A DNA stretch of 64,000 bases. Source: an uncultured Chloroflexia bacterium. GTDB lineage: Bacteria > Chloroflexota > Limnocylindria > QHBO01. The stretch lies in NCBI GenBank assembly GCA_963825525.1, contig CAWGTN010000002.1, positions 1,376,001-1,440,000 on the forward strand, given 5' to 3'. The notes beneath the pieces were generated by a model. The model was not told the DNA's origin. It worked only from the letters and a program-made list of their open reading frames with translations, and did not search any database. A program made the position numbers and the translations under genes. The stretch's first letter is position 1. Each line of letters opens with the position of its first letter. Of the stretch, positions 9,563-20,427 are shown in pieces.

Positions 9563-10558
9563 ATGAACCCGAGAGCCCCCGTCGACAAGATCATCATCGC
9601 CGAGGCGATCCGCGCCACCGAGGCCGGGGCCATCGCCGCCGCGCGCCTCATGGGCCGCGGTGACCGCGACGGCGCCGACCAGGCGGCCGTGACCGCCATG
9701 CGCAAGGCCATGGACGACGCCGACATCAGCGGCACCATCGTCATCGGCGAGGGCGAGCGCGACTCGGCGCCGATGCTCTACATCGGCGAGAAGGTCGGCA
9801 ACCCGGACGCGGCAATGTCGGTGGACATCGCGGTGGATCCGCTGGAGGGCACGAACCTGGTGGCCACCGGATCGGCCAATGCAACCGCGGTGCTGGCCGC
9901 GGCAGAGCCGGGCGGCCTGATGCACGCGCCGGACACCTACCTCCAGAAGCTCATCGTGGGGCCGATGGCTGCCGGTCACGTGGACATCAACGACCCGATC
10001 GCCACCACCCTGAACACCATCGCCGAGCGGCTGGGACGCGACGTGTGGGACCTGACCGTCGTGATCCTCGAGCGGGAGCGGCACGAGGAGCTCATCGCCG
10101 AGGTCCGCGCGGCCGGCGCCCGCATCAAGCTCATCGGCGACGGAGACCTGACCGCGGCGATCAGCGTGGCGGTGTCGGGCACCGGCGTGCACGCCGTGAT
10201 CGGCACCGGCGGCGCTCCGGAGGGCGTGCTGTCGGCGGCGGCCCTCAAGTGCCTGGGCGGCGAGATCCAGGCCAAGTTCCGATGGCGATCGGACGAGGAG
10301 AAGGAGCGCGCCCGCAAGATGGGCGTGGACGTGGACGACACGGAACGCGTGTACTGGACCGATGACCTGGCATCTGGAGATCACGTGGTCTTCTGTGCCA
10401 CCGGCGTGACCGATGGCGAGCTCCTGCGCGGCGTCCGCTTCTTCGGCGGCGGCGCGCGCACCCATTCCCTGATGCTCAGCTACCAGGGCGGCCTGGTGCG
10501 CTTCATCGACACTGTCCACATGTGGGACCCGGGCAACCCGCCGAAGGTGCGCCTTTAG
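9563..10558 (+). CDS. glpX: Class II fructose-1,6-bisphosphatase
   Basis: VIGEGERDSAPML, DPLEGT, GGAPEGV, ATGVTDG. Confidence 0.97.
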   Translation: MNPRAPVDKIIIAEAIRATEAGAIAAARLMGRGDRDGADQAAVTAMRKAMDDADISGTIVIGEGERDSAPMLYIGEKVGNPDAAMSVDIAVDPLEGTNLVATGSANATAVLAAAEPGGLMHAPDTYLQKLIVGPMAAGHVDINDPIATTLNTIAERLGRDVWDLTVVILERERHEELIAEVRAAGARIKLIGDGDLTAAISVAVSGTGVHAVIGTGGAPEGVLSAAALKCLGGEIQAKFRWRSDEEKERARKMGVDVDDTERVYWTDDLASGDHVVFCATGVTDGELLRGVRFFGGGARTHSLMLSYQGGLVRFIDTVHMWDPGNPPKVRL

Positions 10559-10562
10559 CGGC

Positions 10563-11066
10563 TCATTCGGAGGTGATCCGGACGGAAGGGCCGATGGAAC
10601 TCACGTCAATCTCCAGCCTCAGACCGGCAACGACTCCCGTTGCGTCGCTCGCCAGCCGCTGGCCCATCCATTCGCGAACCGCATCGGCCTGCTCGCCGGA
10701 GCCGAGGATGTCCGGCACGGTGCCGGCGAGGAATCCCCTCGCCAGATCCAACTGACGTTCTGGGTCGTCCACATCCGAGAGGTCGGTCGATGCGAGGATC
10801 TCTCGGACGCCGGCCGCGTCTCCGGTGAACTGGACGTGATACGTGCCCTCCCCGACCTGCGACATGTCCACGGTGCATCGCACTGACTGCGCTCCGGCGG
10901 GCTCTGCCCCCGGGGAGTCGCAGGTAAAGCTGTGCTCGGCCCAGAAGGCGCCAGCCTCGTCCATTGAAAGCGGAAGGGGATCGCCTAAGGGAACGACGCT
11001 CGCGGGGGGAGGCATGGGCGCGCATGCCGCGAGTAGCAGTGCCGCGAGCGCAAAGACATATCTCAC
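10563..11066 (-). CDS. Putative lipoprotein
   Basis: VRYVFALAALLLAAC lipobox from GTG 11066. Confidence 0.65.
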   Translation of the reverse strand: MRYVFALAALLLAACAPMPPPASVVPLGDPLPLSMDEAGAFWAEHSFTCDSPGAEPAGAQSVRCTVDMSQVGEGTYHVQFTGDAAGVREILASTDLSDVDDPERQLDLARGFLAGTVPDILGSGEQADAVREWMGQRLASDATGVVAGLRLEIDVSSIGPSVRITSE

Positions 11067-11107
11067 CGGATCACTCCAGTCGGCCTGCGTCCCGCGTGGT
11101 TCCGGGG

Positions 11108-11650
11108 TCAGCTCAGGCCGGCGGCCGACCTCGGGTCCGACCAGTCTGGACCGCCGACACGCAGGACTTCCTGATTCGCCACGGTGGCGAGCAGGTCGGC
11201 GACCGATACCTCGACCCGCAGGTCCGAGCAGTTCCGCCACGGAAGCAGGTTCGGATCAAGCTCGGCAATCGGCTCCAGCGCGAATCGCCGCTCGTGGAGT
11301 CGTGGGTGCGGCACGATCAGGTCGTGCTCGGTATCGGTCACGCACAGGCCGTCGAAGCTGAGGATGTCCAGGTCGATGACGCGCGGGCCCCATCGGCGAC
11401 CCTGGGGATCGCGACCCAGGGCCAGCTCGAGGCGCTTGAGCTCCCGCAGGAGTTCGATCGGCGACAGATCGGTCTGCAACTCGAGGGCGGCGTTCAGGAA
11501 TCGCGGCTGATCGAGCGAGTCTCGCGGAGCACTGTCGTAAAGCGAAGAGACACTGGCCACCAGGCCGTGTCCCCGCAGCTCGGCCACCGCGGCACGGAAT
11601 GCCACGGCAGGCTCACCCAGGTTTCCACCAAGTCCGATAAAGGCGCGCAC
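11108..11650 (-). CDS. folK: 2-amino-4-hydroxy-6-hydroxymethyldihydropteridine diphosphokinase
   Basis: IGLGGNLG, FLNA, RWGPRVIDLDIL, VPHPRLHERRF. Confidence 0.95.
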   Translation of the reverse strand: MRAFIGLGGNLGEPAVAFRAAVAELRGHGLVASVSSLYDSAPRDSLDQPRFLNAALELQTDLSPIELLRELKRLELALGRDPQGRRWGPRVIDLDILSFDGLCVTDTEHDLIVPHPRLHERRFALEPIAELDPNLLPWRNCSDLRVEVSVADLLATVANQEVLRVGGPDWSDPRSAAGLS

Positions 11651-11784
11651 AGTGCCCGCACTCTAGCCGATTCCCGGTAATGGTCCGATAATCGCGCGGC
11701 GCTACGGTCACTCGAACACCGAGGCGCTCGCCGCGGGGGGCGCGACGACGACATCGGCATCTCTTCGCACAGGAGACCGGTGGA

Positions 11785-14700
11785 TTGTCGGATATCAAAT
11801 ACGCCTACCCGCTGATTCTCAACAAGGTCGCCTCGCCCCAGTACGCGACGCCGACGCTTCGCCGCGCGCGCCTTCTGGAGTGGCTGGACAAGGCGTCCGA
11901 CTGCCGCGCCGCCGTCATCGCGGCCGATGCGGGCTACGGCAAGACCACGCTGCTGTGGCAATGGGAGCGCGAAGCGCAGGTACCGGTGTACTGGTACAAG
12001 CTCGACCGCAACGATCGGGACTGGACGTTCCACATCAGCTACCTGATCGAGGCGATCAGCAAGCGCCATCGCGGATTCGGTCGGCGGGCGCACTCGATGC
12101 TGCAGCAGCTTGGCGGACCGGGATCGGCACGGCCGGGCGTCGCTGCGTACCTGCTGGCCGAAATGCACGAGCAACTGACGGAGCCGTGCACCTTCATCAT
12201 CGATGACTGGCAGTACGTGAACTCGGCCACGGAAGTTCGCGGGCTGTGGAACCAGATCCTCCGTGACGCTCCACCGACCTGCCGCTTCATCTTTGCCTCG
12301 CGGGCCAAGCCGGGACTTCAATTCGCACGGTTCAAGACGCACTCCGGCTACGCCGAGCTTCGAACCGATGCCCTGCGCTTCACCGAAGCCGAGATCGACG
12401 AGCTGTTCCGCGACATCTACAACGACCCGCTGGACCCGACCGAGCTCGTCGAGCTGGAGCGGCGAACGGAAGGCTGGGCCGCGTCGCTGCAGCTGGTCGA
12501 GGTCTCGCTCCGCGAGCGCACGACACCCGAGGGCCGGCGCGACTTCATCCAGTCCATCACCGCGACCACGGACAGCGACCTCTTCGACTTCCTGGCCGAG
12601 GAGGTGCTCGACCAGCAGCCCGAAGAGACGCGGAACTTCCTGCTCACCACGTCCATCCTCCAACAGATCACACCGGAGGTGGCCGAGCGGCTGGCAGGGG
12701 TGCACGACGGCCGTCGCGAGCTGACCGAGCTCGAGCACCGCGGCCTGTTCACGAGTCGCCTGGACGAGGAGCGGTTCCGATACCACAACCTGTTCCGCGA
12801 GTTCCTCGAGCGGCGGCTCATCAGCGAGCGCTCGGAGGCGGAGGTCATCGGCCTGCATATTCACGCGGCCTCCTACTTCGAGACGACGGAGCAGTGGCCC
12901 GAGGCCATCCATCACTACCTGCGAGCCGGCCTCCACCGTCAGGCCGCGCGACTCATCGCCAAGCACGGTGAGGCAGTCGCAGAAGAAGGTCGGCTTGGGC
13001 TCGTGGACGTCTGGATCCGTCAGCTCCCCGCGGAGGCAATCCGACAGAACGCGCGATTGAGCCTCCTATTTGGAGAGACGTCGGGCATGCGGGGCGACTG
13101 GGATCTCGCCCTTCAGGCGCTCACCCGAGCTCGAGCCTATTTTCAGAAGAAGGGTGACAAGCGGCTTGAGTCGCTAGCGTGCTTGAAGCTCAGTTCCGTC
13201 TATTCGAACTACGGCGACAGCGAATTGTCAGCCGGTATCGCGGAGTCGGGCGCTGCCCTCGTTCCTGCTGATGCAGTCGGAACCCGGCTACGACTCGAGG
13301 GCAACCTCGCCATCACCAAGCTGTGGTCGGCGCAACCATACGATCTCGTTGTAAGGGAGTGTCAACGCATCGCAGTGGAGGCCGCGGCTAGAGGTTTCGA
13401 TCACTTTGCTGCGATCGCCCTTCACAATGCGGGCGGCATTCAACTCAGGATGGGACGTGCCCAGGAGGCCGTGACCAACCTTGAAAAGGCTGCAAAATTT
13501 TGGTCGGGCACACCCACGAATCCATTTGCCGACAACTCCGAACTAGTCGGCGCACTGCTCGTAGCCGGACGTGCCGACCAGGCGCGGAAGATCGCAGTGG
13601 AAGCTGTAGAGAGAACACGGCCATGGCCACGACCTCACAGTGATGCGCTCTACGGGCATGCCGCTGTGTTGCTGCACGAGGGCCTGTTCGACTCCGCGGT
13701 CGCGGCGCTTAACGAGGCCGCAGCAACGCCCGCAGTCCTCGGAGCCGCTCACGGCCCAACTCATGCTCGTCTAGTTGAGGCGCTCTACCTCGCTGAGGCT
13801 GAGCCGTCAGTGATCCTCGATTGTTGTCAGTCGCTCAATGCGGGACCCGTCGATTCGCGTTACTCATCCGAGATTGCCCCCGCTGTAGGTATCGGAGTGC
13901 ACTTAGCCGGAGGCTGCGGAAAACGCTGCCAAGACGGCTTGGCCGGTCTGCACCAGTCGGCGGCTCAGGGCGGCCAGTTTCTCGCTATCACTGGAGCCGT
14001 CAAGCTGGGCGTGCTTGGCCTCGATCACGGTGGAAAACGGGATGTCATTGCAGCGTGGCAAGCGGTCGCGCTTGCCGACCAGCACGGCTACTTGCCAATC
14101 CTGAAGTGGTGGGTCAGACGCTACGTGTCGACATCGAGGGCCGCCGTTAGTCTGCCGAACGGAGCGGACCTGATTGCTCGCCTTGTCGAGGCTGACCCGG
14201 AAGGGTGGCGGATCCCGGCCGCTCAACTCCTCCCGCTCCTGTCAGGAGCCGCGCGGTCCACCGTCCTGTCCTGCGTAGCTCGGTATGCCAATCGGGAAAC
14301 GGTGGATGCCCTGAGCGATGTGCCCGGCCAGGACGTGCTCGAAATACGCCAAGCGCTTCGCACATCCCAGGCAGCTCGTCTCTTCCTGCGAACGATGGGG
14401 GGCATCAGTCTCAGGCGTGGGTCATGGGACGGTCCGGCAGTGCACATCGCGAAGCGGCGTGTTCGCGCTCTACTCGCTGTCTTGGCCGCGCATTCGCACA
14501 CCATCCTGACGCGCGACCAAGCGCTGGATCTCTTGTGGCCAGACGCGGATGCGGACTCTGCGATCAACAGTTTGAACCAGACGGTCTTCCAGCTTCGCCG
14601 ACACCTCGACCCCGGGTACAGGGGAGGGGAGAGTCCGGAATACATCATGAGTTCAGCGGAGTCGGTGGGACTGTCCTCTGACTTGATTCGAACTGACGTC

Positions 14701-15138
14701 GATGAGATCAAGCGACTTGCGCTGCGGCTCACCACAGCAAGTTGGGTTGAACGGCAGGGTGTTGCGCGCCGCCTCACTCACCTCGTTAGGGGGGAGTTTC
14801 TCGCGGACCTGCGCTACGAGTCTTGGGCATCCCGCCTCCAGGGACAGGTGCACCAGTACGTTCGATCGTGCCTGCTGCCGATCGCCAACGGAGCAGGCTC
14901 GTCATATGACAACGATGTTGCTCTTGAGGCCGCCTCGGCCCTGGTGAGCATCGATCCATTCGATGAGGCCGCGACATTAGCCTTGGCCGAATGCCTCTCT
15001 GCGGGGGGACGTCGTGTGGCGGCGCGCGACCTCCTATTGGACTTTGCAAGGCTCATACGGGACGAGCTGGACGAACCGCCGTCAGAAGCCGTCGAGCGAG
15101 CAGCCGAGCGAAACGGGACCGCTGCTATCAAGTCCTAG
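11785..15138 (+). CDS. MalT-like STAND ATPase / TPR / wHTH-BTAD transcriptional regulator
   Basis: AGYGKTT P-loop, IIDDWQ, LRFT..E, TEGWAASL, FRYHNLF; helical repeat middle; C-terminal LWPD/TDVD/IDPFDE BTAD-like region. Confidence 0.88.
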   Translation: MSDIKYAYPLILNKVASPQYATPTLRRARLLEWLDKASDCRAAVIAADAGYGKTTLLWQWEREAQVPVYWYKLDRNDRDWTFHISYLIEAISKRHRGFGRRAHSMLQQLGGPGSARPGVAAYLLAEMHEQLTEPCTFIIDDWQYVNSATEVRGLWNQILRDAPPTCRFIFASRAKPGLQFARFKTHSGYAELRTDALRFTEAEIDELFRDIYNDPLDPTELVELERRTEGWAASLQLVEVSLRERTTPEGRRDFIQSITATTDSDLFDFLAEEVLDQQPEETRNFLLTTSILQQITPEVAERLAGVHDGRRELTELEHRGLFTSRLDEERFRYHNLFREFLERRLISERSEAEVIGLHIHAASYFETTEQWPEAIHHYLRAGLHRQAARLIAKHGEAVAEEGRLGLVDVWIRQLPAEAIRQNARLSLLFGETSGMRGDWDLALQALTRARAYFQKKGDKRLESLACLKLSSVYSNYGDSELSAGIAESGAALVPADAVGTRLRLEGNLAITKLWSAQPYDLVVRECQRIAVEAAARGFDHFAAIALHNAGGIQLRMGRAQEAVTNLEKAAKFWSGTPTNPFADNSELVGALLVAGRADQARKIAVEAVERTRPWPRPHSDALYGHAAVLLHEGLFDSAVAALNEAAATPAVLGAAHGPTHARLVEALYLAEAEPSVILDCCQSLNAGPVDSRYSSEIAPAVGIGVHLAGGCGKRCQDGLAGLHQSAAQGGQFLAITGAVKLGVLGLDHGGKRDVIAAWQAVALADQHGYLPILKWWVRRYVSTSRAAVSLPNGADLIARLVEADPEGWRIPAAQLLPLLSGAARSTVLSCVARYANRETVDALSDVPGQDVLEIRQALRTSQAARLFLRTMGGISLRRGSWDGPAVHIAKRRVRALLAVLAAHSHTILTRDQALDLLWPDADADSAINSLNQTVFQLRRHLDPGYRGGESPEYIMSSAESVGLSSDLIRTDVDEIKRLALRLTTASWVERQGVARRLTHLVRGEFLADLRYESWASRLQGQVHQYVRSCLLPIANGAGSSYDNDVALEAASALVSIDPFDEAATLALAECLSAGGRRVAARDLLLDFARLIRDELDEPPSEAVERAAERNGTAAIKS

Positions 15139-15171
15139 TGGACTACGGCTCAGGCACGACGCGGAAAGGGG

Positions 15172-15200
15172 TTGACTCGGATCCTAAGGCAGGATATCGT
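15172..15200 (+). promoter_or_regulatory. Sigma70-type promoter upstream of the peptide genes
   Basis: TTGACT-N17-TATCGT, followed by GTACT repeats at 15199-15228. Confidence 0.55.
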
Positions 15201-15368
15201 ACTGCCCATCGATAGTACTTTGGTACTTCGACAAATACCGTGGGACGCCGTGATCCGCCAGCCGAATTTGGGCACTTGGGCTGTCGGGGAGCAGGTAGTG
15301 CAACCGACCGTTCCGTCACGGAGTGTGTCGGTTGTTAACCAATTCCGCGCAGAAGAGGGCACCTTCTG

Positions 15369-15395
15369 ATGACCAATCTCACCAAGGGCTGGTAA
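15369..15395 (+). CDS. 8-aa micropeptide MTNLTKGW
   Basis: GAGGG RBS 9 nt upstream; in-frame TAA at 15336 makes this the only ATG; shares [K/R]GW end with the next peptide. Confidence 0.5.
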   Translation: MTNLTKGW

Positions 15396-15418
15396 TCCAG
15401 CCGGACTAGGAGATCAGC

Positions 15419-15517
15419 ATGCGCATGTTCGCTAGACGGCTCGCGACGCTGATTCCAGCCCTACTTTCGCTCGTGGCTTTAGCTCTAGCTGGAGGCGCAG
15501 GCTTCAGGGGTTGGTAG
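15419..15517 (+). CDS. 32-aa signal-peptide-like precursor MRMFARRLATLIPALLSLVALALAGGAGFRGW
   Basis: AGGAG RBS 6 nt upstream; basic N-region, hydrophobic H-region, short GAGFRGW tail. Confidence 0.78.
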   Translation: MRMFARRLATLIPALLSLVALALAGGAGFRGW

Positions 15518-15559
15518 GCGGGAATGCTAGACTGCCAAACCGCATGAAGCGGTATCGAA

Positions 15560-16999
15560 TTGGTGGATAGCGGAGTCCGTCGCCTAGTCATCGCGACCGC
15601 AACCGCCGCAATTATCACAATTGCGGCGGTTGTGTACCTATTCCCGCTGAACGACGCAATCGGCGGCCCTCCAGGACTAGTGTTCTGGGTCATCGCGACA
15701 CTTGTCGCGAGTGCGCTACCGGTCCAGTTGCCACGAGGAACCGTCGTTTCCGTTTCTGCTTCGCCGGTGGTGGCGGCTTTCATACTTGGCGGTCCCCTGG
15801 CAGGCGTCATCGTCGCAGCCATCGGTTCGACTGACACTCGTGAGCTTCGCGGCGAAGTGCCGTGGTACGGAACGCTCTATAACCACGCGTCGATCGTCCT
15901 CGCCGTGGCCACCGCAGCGATCGTGCACCAGGCTCTGCTGGAGGTCAGTCCACCGGACGCAGGCGCGGAAATCGCCTACTCACTGCTAGCGGCCCTGGTA
16001 GCAGGAGTTGTCCTCTGGCTCGTGAACTGGACCCTAAGTGTCGGTGCGGTAAGCGTCCGGACGGGGGTTCCAATCCGAACGGTGTGGGCTCAGGACGTCT
16101 CCGGCATCGCTCTCACCATGATTGGGCTCGTCCCGCTGGCGTGGCTGATGGCTCAAGTCTTCGAACTCCCTCACGGCGCGGGTTGGTGGGCAACCGCACT
16201 ATTTGCGATTCCCCTCTTCACCACTCGCTTGGCGTATGCGAGGTATGTCGAGACGCGGCTGCTGTTCGAGCAGACCATCCAGGCACTGTCGAAGGCCGTC
16301 GACGCACGCGACCGGTATACCCGTAACCATTCGAGTCGCGTGAGCCGGATCTCGGAGGCGATGGCGCGGGTGATGCGGCTGCCCGAGTCCGAGATCGAGA
16401 AGATCACGTGGGCCGGGCTGCTCCACGACATCGGGAAGATCGGCATCCGCGACAACATCCTGCTGAAGGAAGGGCCGCTCGACAAGGAGGAGCGGACGAC
16501 CATGAATCGGCACCCGCGGATCGGCGCCGAGATCGTGGCACCCGCCACCCAGCTGCGGGGCGAGGCCCCGCTCATCCTGGCCCACCACGAGTGGTTCAAC
16601 GGATCGGGCTATCCGGAAGGCACCGAGGCGCTGGACATTCCATTGGGCGCCCGAATCATGACGATCGCCGATGCCTACGAGGCGATGACGAGCTCGCGCC
16701 CCTACCGCAAGACGCCGCTCACCCACGAGCAGGCCGTGGATCAGCTGGAGAAGTTCGCCGGCATCCAGTTCGACCCGGACATCGTTCCCATCCTGATCAA
16801 CCTGGACCGCAGCATCCTCGATCGGCCGCCCGACAGCCCCGACGAGCTCCCGACCATGCTGCATGATCCCGATCCCCGCGACACCGGCACCGACGCCGAT
16901 GCGCCCGGCGACCAGGTGATCGCTGCCGCCAAGCCGCCGGCCGAGTCCCCTCCCGATCCCCGAGCGAGGCCCACGTTGGCCTCGGACGATGTTTCTTAG
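15560..16999 (+). CDS. Membrane-sensor HD-GYP phosphodiesterase
   Basis: About 7 N-terminal TM helices; HSSRV, LHDIGKIG, HHE.FNGSGYP, IADAYEAMTS.RPYR, QFDP. Confidence 0.93.
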   Translation: MVDSGVRRLVIATATAAIITIAAVVYLFPLNDAIGGPPGLVFWVIATLVASALPVQLPRGTVVSVSASPVVAAFILGGPLAGVIVAAIGSTDTRELRGEVPWYGTLYNHASIVLAVATAAIVHQALLEVSPPDAGAEIAYSLLAALVAGVVLWLVNWTLSVGAVSVRTGVPIRTVWAQDVSGIALTMIGLVPLAWLMAQVFELPHGAGWWATALFAIPLFTTRLAYARYVETRLLFEQTIQALSKAVDARDRYTRNHSSRVSRISEAMARVMRLPESEIEKITWAGLLHDIGKIGIRDNILLKEGPLDKEERTTMNRHPRIGAEIVAPATQLRGEAPLILAHHEWFNGSGYPEGTEALDIPLGARIMTIADAYEAMTSSRPYRKTPLTHEQAVDQLEKFAGIQFDPDIVPILINLDRSILDRPPDSPDELPTMLHDPDPRDTGTDADAPGDQVIAAAKPPAESPPDPRARPTLASDDVS

Positions 17000-18911
17000 C
17001 GCAATCGTCCTCGCGCTGATCGTCGGCGCACTTGCCGGGGGGTCATTTCCCAGGATCGCCGATCTTCGCCTCCGCTGGAGTCTCCTCCTCGCCGTCGCTC
17101 TGGGGCTGCGTCTGCTGGTCGGCGTGAGTCGCGAGATCGCGATCCTTCCCGAGATCCCCGCCGGTGCGGCGGTGCTTGCCGCCTACGGCCTCATCCTCGC
17201 CTGGCTGTGGTTCAACTGGCGCGTACCCGGGCTCCAGATCGCAGCCGTCGGCATCGGCGCCAACCTTCTCGCCGTCCTCGTCAACCAGGGACAGATGCCG
17301 ATCTGGTCGGCCGCCTACTTCTCCGCGGGGTTCACCGAGGCCGATCTCGCCAACGACGCCTTCCATTTCCTGCTGCGAACCGATTCCATCGCCGGCTTCG
17401 TCGCCGCGGGCGGCCTGTTCGGCGACGTGATTCCGCTGCCGATCCCGTACATCCGCGACGTGATCAGCATCGGCGACGTGCTCCTGGCTCTCGGGATCTT
17501 CTGGGCCATCGTGTATTCGATGACGCGAGTCGATGCACCCACCCGACGCGCGGTTGCGATCGGCTCGGTTGGACAGCGTCAGCCTGCGGCCGGCGCGTTC
17601 CAGAGCGGGCTCGTCTACGCGCAGGCATCCGCCATCCCGGCCGATGCGGGCATCCCGACGGCCGACGGTGAGGCGGCGCCGCGGTCACAGTCGCCGTACC
17701 TGAGACTGGTGCGCAACCGGAACTTCTCACTGCTGTGGGTCGGTCAGCTTGTGTCGCTGCTGGGCGATCGCATCCACGTCATTGCGCTCGGGGCACTGGT
17801 CGCGGGCCGTGGCTCGGCACTCGAGGTCGGCCTGACATTCGCCGCAACCGCGGTGCCCAGCGTGATCCTGGGTCCGCTGGCCGGCGTCCTGGTCGACCGA
17901 TGGGACCGGCGCGTGACGATGGTCGCCTGCGACGTGGTCCGCGCGGTTCTCGTGCTGGCCGTGCCGTTCGCGTTCGAGATCCACATCGGCCTGGTCTACG
18001 CCTCAGCCTTCCTCATCGCGACGGTGACACTCCTGTTCCGGCCGGCGAAGACGGCGGTCGTGCCCGCCATCGTGGACGAGAAGGACCTGGTGACCGCCAA
18101 CTCGGCGATGTCGGTGCCGGAGACGGCGGCCGACCTCATCGGCTTCCCGGTGGCCGGGCTCATCGTGACCGCGTTGAGCGGCGTGATCGGCGCCGCATTC
18201 ATCCTGGATGCCGGGACGTACGTGGTATCCGCCGTCCTCATCTGGGCGATGCTCATCCCGCGCCAGGTTGCCGAGCCGGCCGAACGGCTGTCCATCGGCG
18301 GTGTGTGGCGCGAGATGCGCGAGGGGTTTGCCTTCCTATGGGCCGAATCGGCGCTGCTCTCGAACACGTTGCTCTCCACGCTGGCCCAGGTCGCGGTCGG
18401 CGCGGAGATCGTCGTCAGCCTCCTCTACGCACGGGACGTCGTGGCTCGCGGCGCGATGAGCTTCGAGCAGATGTACGCGCTCCTGCTCACCGCCATCGCG
18501 GTCGGGAGCGTGGTGGCCGGCGTGGCGGTCGGCGCCATCGGCGATCGAATCCCCAAGGGACCGATGGTGATCGCGGGCTTCCTGGGAATGGGGCTGTCCC
18601 TTGTCGCGGCGGGGCTCGTCACCGATCCGATCCTCGCCATGATCGCGTTCTTCTTCACCGGCGCGACGAACATGCTCTTCATCATCCCCACCGTGACGCT
18701 GTTCCAGCAGCGGACGCCGCAGCGCCTGATGGGCAGGGTGGTATCGAGCCGCCAGGCGCTGGTCTTCGGGTCGATCGCAACCTCGATGGGCCTGTCCGGC
18801 TGGTTGGCCGGCATCCTCGGACCGGCCGCAGTGCTGATGATCAGTGGCGGCATGTGCGCCGCGGCCGGGGTCATCGGCATCGTGGTGCCGCCCATGCGGA
18901 ACGCCCGCTGA
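16989..18911 (+). CDS. DUF5317-like membrane domain fused to an MFS (DHA3/macrolide-efflux-like) transporter
   Basis: N-terminal GANLLAVLVNQGQMP...GDVI...SIGD; C-terminal NFSLLWVGQLVSLLGD, GVLVDRWDRR, MGRV; a single uninterrupted ORF. Confidence 0.82.
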   Translation: MFLSAIVLALIVGALAGGSFPRIADLRLRWSLLLAVALGLRLLVGVSREIAILPEIPAGAAVLAAYGLILAWLWFNWRVPGLQIAAVGIGANLLAVLVNQGQMPIWSAAYFSAGFTEADLANDAFHFLLRTDSIAGFVAAGGLFGDVIPLPIPYIRDVISIGDVLLALGIFWAIVYSMTRVDAPTRRAVAIGSVGQRQPAAGAFQSGLVYAQASAIPADAGIPTADGEAAPRSQSPYLRLVRNRNFSLLWVGQLVSLLGDRIHVIALGALVAGRGSALEVGLTFAATAVPSVILGPLAGVLVDRWDRRVTMVACDVVRAVLVLAVPFAFEIHIGLVYASAFLIATVTLLFRPAKTAVVPAIVDEKDLVTANSAMSVPETAADLIGFPVAGLIVTALSGVIGAAFILDAGTYVVSAVLIWAMLIPRQVAEPAERLSIGGVWREMREGFAFLWAESALLSNTLLSTLAQVAVGAEIVVSLLYARDVVARGAMSFEQMYALLLTAIAVGSVVAGVAVGAIGDRIPKGPMVIAGFLGMGLSLVAAGLVTDPILAMIAFFFTGATNMLFIIPTVTLFQQRTPQRLMGRVVSSRQALVFGSIATSMGLSGWLAGILGPAAVLMISGGMCAAAGVIGIVVPPMRNAR

Positions 18912-18939
18912 ACGAGCGATCTGCTACTCTGCGCGCGCC

Positions 18940-19194
18940 GTGGGACTGATTCTCGACCTGGCGGTCGCGGCCCTCGCGCTGCTCGTCATCGCTTCGCTGG
19001 CCATGCTGGCCTGGACGCTCGGCATCAGTGCCACGAGGGCGACCCGCGAACGGCGGCGGCAGGTCGAGGAGGATCGCCGATCCATCGCGCGGACGGAAGA
19101 ACGCGTTCGGTCCGCCGCCCGACGAACGTCGGCCAAGCTGGCTGAGCTCGCGGCGCGAACAACACCGACACCTGGAGAGCGACCCGACGCATGA
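18940..19194 (+). CDS. Small single-TM protein
   Basis: Hydrophobic N-terminus then coiled region; TACTCT box before GTG; overlaps next gene ATGA. Confidence 0.55.
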   Translation: MGLILDLAVAALALLVIASLAMLAWTLGISATRATRERRRQVEEDRRSIARTEERVRSAARRTSAKLAELAARTTPTPGERPDA

Positions 19195-19499
19195 CGAAGA
19201 GCAGCCAGACGCCGAAACCTGAGGATCGCGCCGAGCGCGGATACCGAGGGGCACTCCCCGCGCAGGATGACCACCTCGCCAAGCCGTGGATTCTGACCGT
19301 GGCCGCCATCTTCCTGCTGGTGCTTCTCCTGTCCCTCGTGGGAATTCCGTCCTCCCTGATCCCCGATCCGACACCGGTGCCTCTGCCCTCGACCCCCGCT
19401 TCCAGCTCGGTCGAGCCCTCGGCTTCGGCTTCGGGGTCGGTGTCTGCTTCGCCTTCCGCTTCGGCTTCGGCTTCGGCTTCGGCCAGTCCTTCGCCGTAG
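19191..19499 (+). CDS. Small membrane protein with Ser/Ala/Pro-rich tail
   Basis: GGAGAG RBS, one TM helix, GGCTTC tandem repeats encoding SASASA. Confidence 0.65.
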   Translation: MTKSSQTPKPEDRAERGYRGALPAQDDHLAKPWILTVAAIFLLVLLLSLVGIPSSLIPDPTPVPLPSTPASSSVEPSASASGSVSASPSASASASASASPSP

Positions 19500-19512
19500 G
19501 GTCGGCGCGAGC

Positions 19513-19687
19513 CGATGTTTCGGCTGCCGCGTGGCCCTGAAGCCGTCGCCGGCGCCCCTGCGCCGATATTTCAGGCGCCCGTCCTCGTGAGACGCGCCCC
19601 GGGGCGCCCTCCACGCTCACCACCGACCGAAATATCGGCGGCACGGCGCCTGAGGAACCCGGAGGCCACCGCCCGGCCGAAATATCG
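19513..19687. repeat. Four-core array (family 2, GCCGAWATWTCGGC)
   Basis: Cores at 19513, 19564, 19628, 19678 (51/64/50); about 140 bp is a near-identical direct repeat of the 20509 array. Confidence 0.9.
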
Positions 19688-19728
19688 GCGTCGGGCGTCT
19701 TGGCACTCCGGGGACCGACCCGGCCTGC

Positions 19729-20427
19729 TCAGCCCACGGTCTGCGGCATTCTCCGCGGACGGATCCACAGCAATCCGTCGGCTCCCAGTGGCCGACCGCC
19801 TCTGATGGCGCCCAGCACCTCTCGTGATGTCCCGGGGAGTGCGGTCCCCACGAGCCGAGCGTGGGGCTCAAGGGCTGCGCGATTCCGCCTCGTGTCCTCG
19901 ACGGCCATGACCAGACGCACCGGCCGTTCGTGGCGCGCGGCGAGGTAGTCTCGCTTCTGCACGTTGCGCCGATACTGCGCCTGGAAGTCGACCAGCCTTC
20001 GGTCGATCTCGATGTCGATGATCTCGAGCGGGCCGTAGAGCACGACATCGCATGCCTCCCCGTGCTCGCCGGCGGGCAACTCGAGCGCCACGGTCCAATG
20101 CTGGGTGGCCAAGCGTCGGATGTGTTCCGCAACGGTGAGCTGACCGCTGTCGCGGAGGCCGATCGGGCGGGCGCGGTAGGCGCGCAGAACGATGTCGATC
20201 CCCACGGCTTGCCCCACCGCGCAGATCGTGGAGATGCTGACGCCGGGCTCGCCAAACTCCACGCGGCGCTCGGTGTCGGGCGAGACACCGGCTCTCCGGC
20301 TCGCGGTCACGCGAGTCATTGCCTGCTCCACCCGAGCGAGACGAATCTCCTGGCCGATCGACCCCGCCTGCGCGCGAGCCCGGCGTGCCCCGGCCCTCCG
20401 CTGGCTGGGGCGTGTGACGTGAGCCAT
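19729..20427 (-). CDS. XRE-HTH protein with putative PD-(D/E)XK-like C-terminal domain (paralog 1)
   Basis: IRLAR..AM....ASRRAGVS....RVEFG HTH; LRD.GQL, E-x10-D-x12-E-x-D, DFQAQYRR, VEDTRRN, DGLLW. Confidence 0.8.
   Translation of the reverse strand: MAHVTRPSQRRAGARRARAQAGSIGQEIRLARVEQAMTRVTASRRAGVSPDTERRVEFGEPGVSISTICAVGQAVGIDIVLRAYRARPIGLRDSGQLTVAEHIRRLATQHWTVALELPAGEHGEACDVVLYGPLEIIDIEIDRRLVDFQAQYRRNVQKRDYLAARHERPVRLVMAVEDTRRNRAALEPHARLVGTALPGTSREVLGAIRGGRPLGADGLLWIRPRRMPQTVG

Follow-up and report, generated by a model that had tools for sequence, protein, structure and literature searches.

What governs an HD-GYP phosphodiesterase gene that is preceded by two very small open reading frames (ORFs) and a large regulator gene? 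This question is raised by a locus of an uncultured Chloroflexia bacterium (Chloroflexota; Limnocylindria; QHBO01), which we analysed in a window of 64,000 nucleotides (assembly GCA_963825525.1, contig CAWGTN010000002.1, positions 1,376,001 to 1,440,000 of the forward strand). The locus contains genes for a STAND/BTAD regulator, a MASE9-HD-GYP phosphodiesterase and a fusion of DUF5317 with a major facilitator superfamily (MFS) transporter. Between the first two of these genes lie a promoter, a mini-ORF of eight codons and an ORF for a micro-protein of 32 amino acids (Table 1). A first-pass annotation had described a putative peptide-signalling locus, and the promoter, both small ORFs with their Shine-Dalgarno (SD)-like motifs and the three large genes were all found where it had placed them. 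The small ORFs and the gene set proved to be a conserved module, but a candidate cyclic di-GMP (c-di-GMP)-II riboswitch, located downstream of the promoter and ahead of the mini-ORF, had been overlooked. We propose, with a probability of roughly 0.6, that the locus is a riboswitch-gated, substrate-induced phosphodiesterase operon with negative feedback, in which the mini-ORF serves as a leader upstream ORF (uORF) and the micro-protein works with MASE9 and/or DUF5317.

A candidate c-di-GMP-II riboswitch precedes the mini-ORF

A scan of positions 11000-20000 against Rfam returned a single match, the c-di-GMP-II aptamer RF01786 at 15236-15318 on the plus strand. The match covers the full model (1-84) with an E-value of 2.4e-9 and is located between the promoter and the mini-ORF; it is also the only RF01786 match in the whole genome of 2.58 Mb. 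The promoter itself is a sigma-70-like element, TTGACT-17-TATCGT, at 15172-15200 (+), and the sole such site in 14900-15800 (mean of 0.1 in shuffled sequences). In an alignment of 14 loci of the genus, its -35 sequence CTTGAC is invariant and its -10 sequence TAnnGT is kept in all 14.

Relatives were searched for the HD-GYP protein and for RF01786 in a set of 41 genomes from families f1-f5. The HD-GYP protein was matched at E <= 0.001 in 39 of the 41 genomes. RF01786 was detected at the same threshold in 25 of them and exceeded the Rfam cut-off in 13, with the orthologous copies reaching 53.9-65.3 bits. With the genome of the window excluded, the aptamer occurred in 19 of 24 genomes of f1 and five of seven of f3, and in none of f2 (0/7), f4 (0/1) and f5 (0/1). 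The best aptamers lie approximately 240-350 nt upstream of the HD-GYP orthologue and on the same strand in 14 further genomes of the genus as well as in four f3 genomes. Three loci from public metagenome-assembled genomes (MAGs; L033-L035) carry aptamers of 53.6-64.9 bits, all over the cut-off, and show the same order as the window, namely regulator, riboswitch, HD-GYP and DUF5317-MFS.

An RNAalifold consensus was computed from 21 of the 22 aptamer-bearing loci, with L014 left out. It contained 12 pairs, six of which showed compensatory changes. All six are part of a nine-pair helix (columns 26-34 with 50-59), and it is for this helix that covariation was assessed. The aptamer of one locus, L030, is degenerate. 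The presumed ligand at this locus is c-di-GMP, and no signal input to the putative operon other than the riboswitch could be recognised.

Further, weaker RF01786-like matches (E 1e-4 to 1e-8) were present away from the locus in several relatives, including G028:C67 and G036. One relative genome contained eight extra matches of this kind, and another had three of them inside 6 kb. These matches suggest a larger c-di-GMP-II-type regulon in the class.

Contigs of relatives from soil metatranscriptomes match positions 15239-15376 at 85% likeness or more in four of four runs from four studies, and several of them extend more than 200 nt past the start of the mini-ORF. Coverage at 85% likeness comprised 15239-15395 and two short coding stretches; at this likeness, gaps and differences in depth are uninformative.

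Expression platform and mini-ORF

The 5' arm of an alternative hairpin predicted in the minimum free energy (MFE) folds is CAACCGACCGUUCCG, which is the conserved 3' segment of the aptamer. We regard this hairpin, whose sequence is the same in all 14 loci of the genus, as a candidate terminator or sequestor. Because its 5' arm is part of the aptamer, a bound ligand should keep the hairpin from forming. This is the geometry of an ON switch, in which an alternative hairpin usually takes the 3' strand of the aptamer as its 5' arm. The f3 loci and L033-L035 contain an equivalent stem, CCGACCGAC...GUC-GGUCGG, followed by UUUUCGUG, a U-rich run (read by eye).

A second predicted hairpin bears the SD-like GAGGG of the mini-ORF. 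The sequence AGAAGAGGGCACCTTCTGATG is kept almost without change in the 14 loci of the genus; L011, L012 and L014 begin it with G, and in L015 it reads AGGAG. A second GGGCAC at 15357-15362, in the loop of this SD hairpin, was considered as a mimic of the pseudoknot, an idea that was dropped as most f3 loci do not have it.

Between the aptamer and the micro-protein gene, 20 of the 22 riboswitch loci contain a homologous ORF of 6-10 codons that ends in [KR]-x-[WF]. Among 3000 stretches of 190 nt drawn at random from the window, 18 (0.6%) contained the same pattern. Positions 2-6 of the encoded peptide are variable. Codon changes among the loci comprise AGA/CGA for R, GAA/GAG for E, CAG/CAA for Q, AGC/UCC for S and GGC/GGU for G, and the ORF varies in frame between 8, 9 and 10 codons. 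Translation of the mini-ORF is supported by these synonymous or conservative changes together with the in-frame lengths. In one RNA contig of a relative the ORF ends in CGG GGC TGG, that is, RGW, with K replaced by R.

The last codons of the mini-ORF also form the 5' arm of a predicted hairpin whose loop holds the stop codon and which lies just 5' of the SD sequence of the micro-protein gene. In all 20 loci the stop codon is enclosed by such a predicted hairpin (mean z -2.1, with z < -1 for 14 loci), and the 3' arms shift and compensate, for example AGCUGG/CCAGCU in L016. No upstream ORF ending in W was listed for six f2 and f5 loci, all of which are without a riboswitch. For the eight-residue peptide, the first-pass annotation had offered the roles of leader peptide, antagonist or cytoplasmic ligand. 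Its occurrence only together with the riboswitch and the stop-codon hairpin favours the leader peptide, and the cytoplasmic ligand is kept as an alternative below. The mini-ORF is thus probably a leader uORF within the expression platform, whose translation would open the hairpin beside the next SD sequence.

A micro-protein family upstream of MASE9-HD-GYP genes

By inspection, the product of the second small ORF has two to three basic residues, approximately 20 hydrophobic residues, a GGA[G/S] motif and a tail of three to five residues. In the window the motif is GGAG and the tail has four residues. The basic N-terminus, the hydrophobic helix and the short tail predict a single helix with the N-terminus inside and the C-terminus outside, a layout no less compatible with a membrane-resident micro-protein than with a pre-peptide.

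A pattern for a hydrophobic ORF that ends in [AGS]-G-[GA]-[AGS..]-x2-6-stop was applied to the 350 nt before the HD-GYP gene. Of 35 assessable loci with MASE9-HD-GYP, 28 matched it, compared to 17 of 2000 random stretches (0.85%). The family comprises proteins of approximately 25-36 amino acids that end in ..GGA[G/S]-x3-4; L030, which the pattern missed, has a variant ending in SGASYRPF. Both small ORFs are conserved in relatives more often than expected by chance (mini-ORF 20/22, micro-protein 28/35).

The 32-amino-acid ORF carries a coding signature. Across ten genus loci, 22, 14 and 29 of 32 sites vary at the first, second and third codon position, respectively. The median ratio of nonsynonymous to synonymous substitution rates (dN/dS) was 0.30 over 44 pairs and 3.07 in a shifted frame. 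These values are based on 10 of the 14 genus loci, as L012, L013 and L023 were dropped for a frameshift and L015 for an extra codon.

An alignment of 27 sequences (A3) includes four families of the class and loci labelled Bacillota, Desulfosporosinus, Clostridiales and Caldatribacterium (Atribacterota), and each of the members from outside the class precedes an HD-GYP gene of the MASE9 type. When 1.84 billion protein representatives were searched with a profile, 93 clusters matched at E <= 0.001, all of 25-79 amino acids. Among the 28 of these 93 cluster sequences that were read, the match reaches the C-terminus save for five exceptions. No family of Pfam or NCBIfam matches the 32-amino-acid product. 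The nearest clusters in the ESM Atlas are 'hypothetical proteins' of 29-32 amino acids (0.91), which can serve as a lead only.

Both small ORFs end in [KR]GW, as the first-pass annotation had noticed. The 64-kb window, read in all six frames, has only three [KR]GW-stops, and these ORFs account for two of them. Throughout the genus the tail of the micro-protein reads FRGW, VRGW or VQGW, and tail and GGAG are its most conserved part there. The idea of co-varying, matching tails was rejected: 19 of 20 mini-ORFs have a final W, whereas the micro-protein has one only in the genus and carries F, L or I as its last residue elsewhere. The two tails are thus similar but do not co-vary. We also rejected a read-through or fusion of the 32-amino-acid ORF with the HD-GYP gene, since TAG and TGA intervene despite the shared frame. 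A complex prediction for MASE9 residues 1-240 (alignment A1) and the micro-protein (A3) gave 0.02 against a mark of 0.32; it was run without controls and speaks neither for nor against binding.

As judged from the loci compared, the micro-protein, MASE9-HD-GYP and DUF5317 are a core module, which four families of the class share with other phyla. With few exceptions, the gene after HD-GYP encodes DUF5317. This domain has no fusion partner in L038, L039 and L042 (Bacillota/Atribacterota), and its fusion to MFS was seen only in this class. The STAND/BTAD regulator, the riboswitch and the mini-ORF form a regulatory add-on, detected solely in the genus, f3 and L033-L035; the upstream DNA of the f2 and f5 loci, covered up to 1.5 kb, showed none of its three parts.

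In Bacillota and Atribacterota loci, a further conserved gene is located just upstream of the micro-protein gene (L036 2881-3519, L042 5089-5724, L037 655-912, L039 522-731). Its product has approximately 210 amino acids in L036 and L042 and a C-terminus of the form ..ALV[RK]ND..EA..KATLDAVNR.., and a weak LeuA_dimer-like match was seen in L036 only (E 9e-4, below the cut-off).

Proposed circuit and direction of the switch

We propose that the genes form a single operon, transcribed from the sigma-70-type promoter just downstream of the co-directional regulator gene. Without ligand, the 3' segment of the aptamer would be captured in the alternative hairpin, and the transcript would be stopped or silenced. 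When c-di-GMP is bound, this segment would stay in the aptamer and expression would go on. Translation of the mini-ORF would then open the stop-codon hairpin and make the SD sequence of the second cistron accessible. The micro-protein (25-36 amino acids, N-terminus inside, tail of three to five residues outside) would act in the membrane with MASE9 and/or DUF5317, and the HD-GYP enzyme would lower c-di-GMP and close the negative feedback loop.

Several observations weigh against this proposal. The aptamer of the window scores 51.8 bits, which is 1.7 below the Rfam gathering score of 53.5. The last codons of the mini-ORF are nucleotide-invariant within the genus (AAG GGC/AGC TGG), so that RNA structure alone could explain part of the conservation. 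Moreover, the frame of the mini-ORF is broken in L015 by an indel of 1 nt, and the ORF was not found in L030 with its degenerate aptamer. The micro-protein frame is broken in L012, L013 and L023, where the C-terminal motif is kept in another frame. No micro-protein was found in L025, where the upstream sequence is 228 nt long, or upstream of the two distant HD-GYP genes L041 and L076. In the profile search, P0013 and P0086 extend past the motif, P0005 and P0041 carry one extra residue, and P0063 (58 amino acids) consists of two tandem micro-protein units (..AGGAHNRW..linker..AGGAHWRW). The metatranscriptome contigs show that RNA libraries contain such leaders, which is no proof of transcription or translation of this copy. 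Finally, both the location and the binding partner of the micro-protein are putative.

For the broken frames, assembly indel errors are the likely cause. All four loci with broken small ORFs (L012, L013, L015 and L023) are in the MAGs G020, G003, G014 and G008, which consist of few contigs and in which the HD-GYP gene is interrupted as well, by internal stops or fragmentation; the frameshifts of the small ORFs thus coincide with a broken HD-GYP gene.

The direction of the switch deserves separate consideration. A consensus scan of 14900-15800 revealed no terminator-like site, and the tail after the alternative hairpin is weakly U-rich in the genus, without a canonical U-tract. This leaves room for termination as well as for other modes of control, including an OFF switch. 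In such a case c-di-GMP would repress the operon or act only on initiation at the mini-ORF, and the HD-GYP gene would be expressed mainly from an internal promoter. The extended -10-like motif TGCTAGACT ahead of the HD-GYP gene, kept as TG[CG]TAGACT in 13 of 14 genus loci (TAAACT in L013; TGnTAGACT as a general form), may be such a promoter and give this gene transcription independent of the riboswitch, which also counts against our proposal. An OFF switch or purely translational control would further agree with L022, in which the aptamer is followed directly by the SD sequence and the mini-ORF. We nevertheless consider an OFF switch or purely translational control rather unlikely, as the alternative hairpin takes the 3' strand of the aptamer as its 5' arm, the f3 stem is followed by UUUUCGUG, and a phosphodiesterase induced by its substrate would be the simpler physiological circuit.

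The membrane proteins and a possible peptide signal

The domain calls that the first-pass annotation had made for the three large proteins were upheld by Pfam and NCBIfam. In the phosphodiesterase, HD_5 was matched with an E-value of 4.5e-35, in addition to HD, and MASE9 (PF20972) occupies residues 41-224, N-terminal to the HD-GYP part (34.1 bits against a gathering threshold (GA) of 24.3). H288-D289, H341-H342-E343 and G349-Y350-P351 are invariant in 13 HD-GYP orthologues, and these motifs suggest that the enzyme is probably active. Its likely start is GTG 15563, which aligns with the starts of the orthologues. The gene overlaps the following one by 11 nt. In the product of that gene, DUF5317 (PF17248) covers residues 26-175 with 77.7 bits against 25 (86.1 bits for the stand-alone homologue in L042), and a DHA3-type MFS part covers residues 241-633 (MFS_1/MFS_3 in Pfam; TIGR00900, 8.3e-55).

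In line with the peptide-signalling model of the first-pass annotation, the 32-amino-acid product could be a pre-peptide. It would be cleaved near GGAG, perhaps by DUF5317 as an intramembrane peptidase, and a C-terminal peptide of 4-8 residues would be released or exported by the MFS part, sensed by MASE9 and used to tune the phosphodiesterase. The product does resemble a bare signal peptide, with a basic N-terminus, a hydrophobic core, AGGAG and a short tail, and the high conservation of tail and GGAG within the genus also speaks for this explanation. DUF5317 contributes the invariant residues N92, N99, D146, S160 and D163, with its two aspartates in GDxIP and SxGD; it is nearly always encoded by the next gene, and DHA3-type MFS proteins are exporters. 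We regard this explanation as doubtful for several reasons. Pheromone systems typically diversify their tails within a lineage, whereas the tail here is uniform across the genus. The MFS fusion was seen only in the class, with DUF5317 alone in other phyla, and L036 encodes the micro-protein but has no DUF5317 among the scanned ORFs beside the HD-GYP gene, the next ORF being SecA. DUF5317 also lacks a clear match to a solved fold: for its model (pLDDT 78.7), Foldseek returned no PDB match at E <= 0.001, and VIA wide reached a Z of at most 7.4, with generic helical rows as the partners. Foldseek and VIA thus point to no clear solved structural relative, peptidase or other, which is no proof of a new fold. 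The comparison with agr, comQXPA and RRNPP systems in the first-pass annotation was not supported, since no RRNPP receptor, AgrB or ComQ family and no other known family of quorum processing or export was matched in the three large proteins (the Pfam and NCBIfam scans covered these and five neighbours).

A more elaborate version combines peptide signalling with the riboswitch. It posits a c-di-GMP-gated peptide layer of twin micropeptides with [K/R]-small-aromatic tails: DUF5317 as an undescribed intramembrane aspartyl peptidase would cleave the membrane-bound one, a substrate resembling a bare signal peptide, the MFS part would export its tail and MASE9 would read it, while the cytoplasmic one would bind the TPR of the STAND regulator. 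We consider this a long shot; if it were true, a second messenger and a self-made peptide signal would control each other.

Regulator and nearby DNA elements

The regulator combines a MalT-like STAND NTPase N-terminus with a central TPR region and a C-terminal OmpR-type winged helix-turn-helix (wHTH; Trans_reg_C) followed by BTAD. Trans_reg_C was matched at residues 892-954 (29.5 bits, GA 26.2) and BTAD at residues 999-1107 (31.3 bits, GA 22.1). TPR_12 was matched too, the matches to NPHP3_N/AAA_22 were weak, and a GYGKT motif is visible in the translation. Residues 10-429 align to positions 2-415 of MalT (E 2.4e-77), with a score of 260.8 bits that misses the equivalog cut-off of 537 in NCBIfam. 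By this comparison the protein is MalT-like in its N-terminal half only, and its output domain is wHTH plus BTAD and not of the LuxR type. The order wHTH-then-BTAD is the one expected of SARP/BTAD regulators; in AfsR-type SARPs the overall order is reversed relative to this regulator, whose wHTH-BTAD sits C-terminally. Homologues of the regulator are encoded upstream in the genus loci, the f3 loci and L033-L035.

Least probable is that the mini-peptide (M-x-R-E-x-x-K-G-W) is the cytoplasmic ligand of the TPR of this regulator in a c-di-GMP-gated autoregulatory loop: TPR receptors of short peptides are known, for example RRNPP, mini-ORF, riboswitch and STAND regulator co-occur (none of them being found in f2 and f5 within up to 1.5 kb upstream), and the conservation is at the amino acid level (K to R by CGG in the RNA contig, Ser as AGC and UCC), but the co-occurrence is equally explained by the ORF being part of the riboswitch platform, the 3' codons double as the 5' arm of the conserved hairpin, and positions 2-6 vary.

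Table 1 Features of the locus. Positions refer to the window; the strand is given as plus or as none.
Feature	Position	Strand	Basis
STAND/BTAD regulator, 1117 aa	11785-15138	+	ORF listing, Pfam, NCBIfam
Imperfect palindrome, genus consensus GGTCAA-N8-TTGACT	15127-15144	none	Conserved block in the 14-locus genus alignment
5' leader hairpin AGUAC-UUUG-GUACU / GTAC palindrome	15214-15227	+	Near-invariant in the genus; forms pairs in the MFE fold
Alternative hairpin, about -20.6 kcal/mol, 5' arm CAACCGACCGUUCCG pairing with CGGAGUGUGUCGGUUG	15300-15335	+	MFE folds
SD hairpin CAGAAG-AGGGCAC-CUUCUG bearing the SD-like GAGGG of the mini-ORF	15350-15368	+	MFE folds
Mini-ORF MTNLTKGW, 8 codons plus stop, probable leader uORF	15369-15395	+	SD-like GAGGG before ATG
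Stop-codon hairpin GGCUGG-UAAU-CCAGCC, mini-ORF stop codon in the loop, just 5' of the micro-protein SD	15387-15402	+	Folding
Micro-protein MRMFARRLATLIPALLSLVALALAGGAGFRGW, 32 aa	15419-15517	+	SD-like AGGAG before ATG; family conservation
TGCTAGACT, extended -10-like motif between micro-protein stop codon and HD-GYP start	15525-15533	+	Genus alignment
MASE9-HD-GYP phosphodiesterase, 479 aa	15560-16999	+	ORF listing, Pfam
DUF5317-MFS fusion, 640 aa	16989-18911	+	ORF listing, Pfam, NCBIfam

The imperfect palindrome overlaps the stop codon of the regulator gene and is located approximately 30 nt 5' of the -35 element, and TTGAC units recur in the palindrome and in the -35 sequence TTGACT. The palindrome is a candidate operator, to which the BTAD regulator may bind. 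The -10 element is immediately followed by GTAC-N4-GTAC, with loops that vary in f3 and in L033-L035; it may act as a 5' stabilising stem-loop in the RNA or as an operator in the DNA. Extra GTAC copies are present around the -35 element in L022 and L030. Further upstream, at 9563-10558, the window encodes a glpX-type fructose-1,6-bisphosphatase (Pfam E 1.1e-127) that is unrelated to the locus.

Relation to known systems and significance

The locus shares with RRNPP, agr and comQXPA systems the clustering of a tiny ORF with a TPR regulator, a membrane sensor and a transporter. It differs from them in its MalT-like STAND regulator with a C-terminal wHTH-BTAD, and neither AgrB/AgrD and ComQ/ComX nor an RRNPP receptor family was matched in the three large proteins. 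In the mgtA/mgtL leader of Salmonella, a ligand-sensing RNA and a very short ORF jointly set downstream expression. Ligand, RNA fold and peptide are different there; in the locus described here the uORF comes after the switching hairpin, and [KR]-x-W-stop lies inside a hairpin of its own. A possible parallel for the micro-protein is MgrB, a tiny protein with a single membrane pass that shares its regulation with the sensor PhoQ and acts back on it inside the bilayer. The micro-protein has no sequence relation to MgrB, and its putative partner is MASE9-HD-GYP.

The c-di-GMP-II aptamer class and its link to genes of c-di-GMP turnover are known (Lee et al. 2010, as cited in PMC12564702). As far as that source describes them, such RF01786 operons agree with our locus in the aptamer class, its position in the 5' leader and the c-di-GMP turnover gene. 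Our locus differs in its lineage, which the record labels of relatives suggest to be of a Chloroflexota type and not Clostridia, and in that a conserved uORF of 8-10 codons with a stop-codon hairpin and then a conserved micro-protein gene precede the enzyme gene. MASE9-HD-GYP proteins have been described with TM1467 and HdgA (Vnz_24090), for which the binding of a ligand by MASE9 within the membrane was proposed (bioRxiv 10.1101/2021.11.05.467447). According to that text their domain architecture is the same as here, and the words 'riboswitch', 'small protein' and 'MFS' do not occur in its main text. Literature searches, which covered main texts, found nothing on DUF5317 and no description of the riboswitch-uORF leader, the micro-protein or the arrangement of the locus.

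If the proposal is correct, the locus would provide a concrete circuit for c-di-GMP homeostasis in a poorly studied and mostly uncultured lineage. Its leader, with a riboswitch and a uORF in series, would be an unusual expression platform that is open to dissection in vitro. According to the record labels, at least three groups at the level of phyla have a tiny, putatively membrane-bound protein that accompanies MASE9-HD-GYP and, in most cases, DUF5317. The micro-protein is a specific candidate for the partner or ligand that is still missing from this picture.

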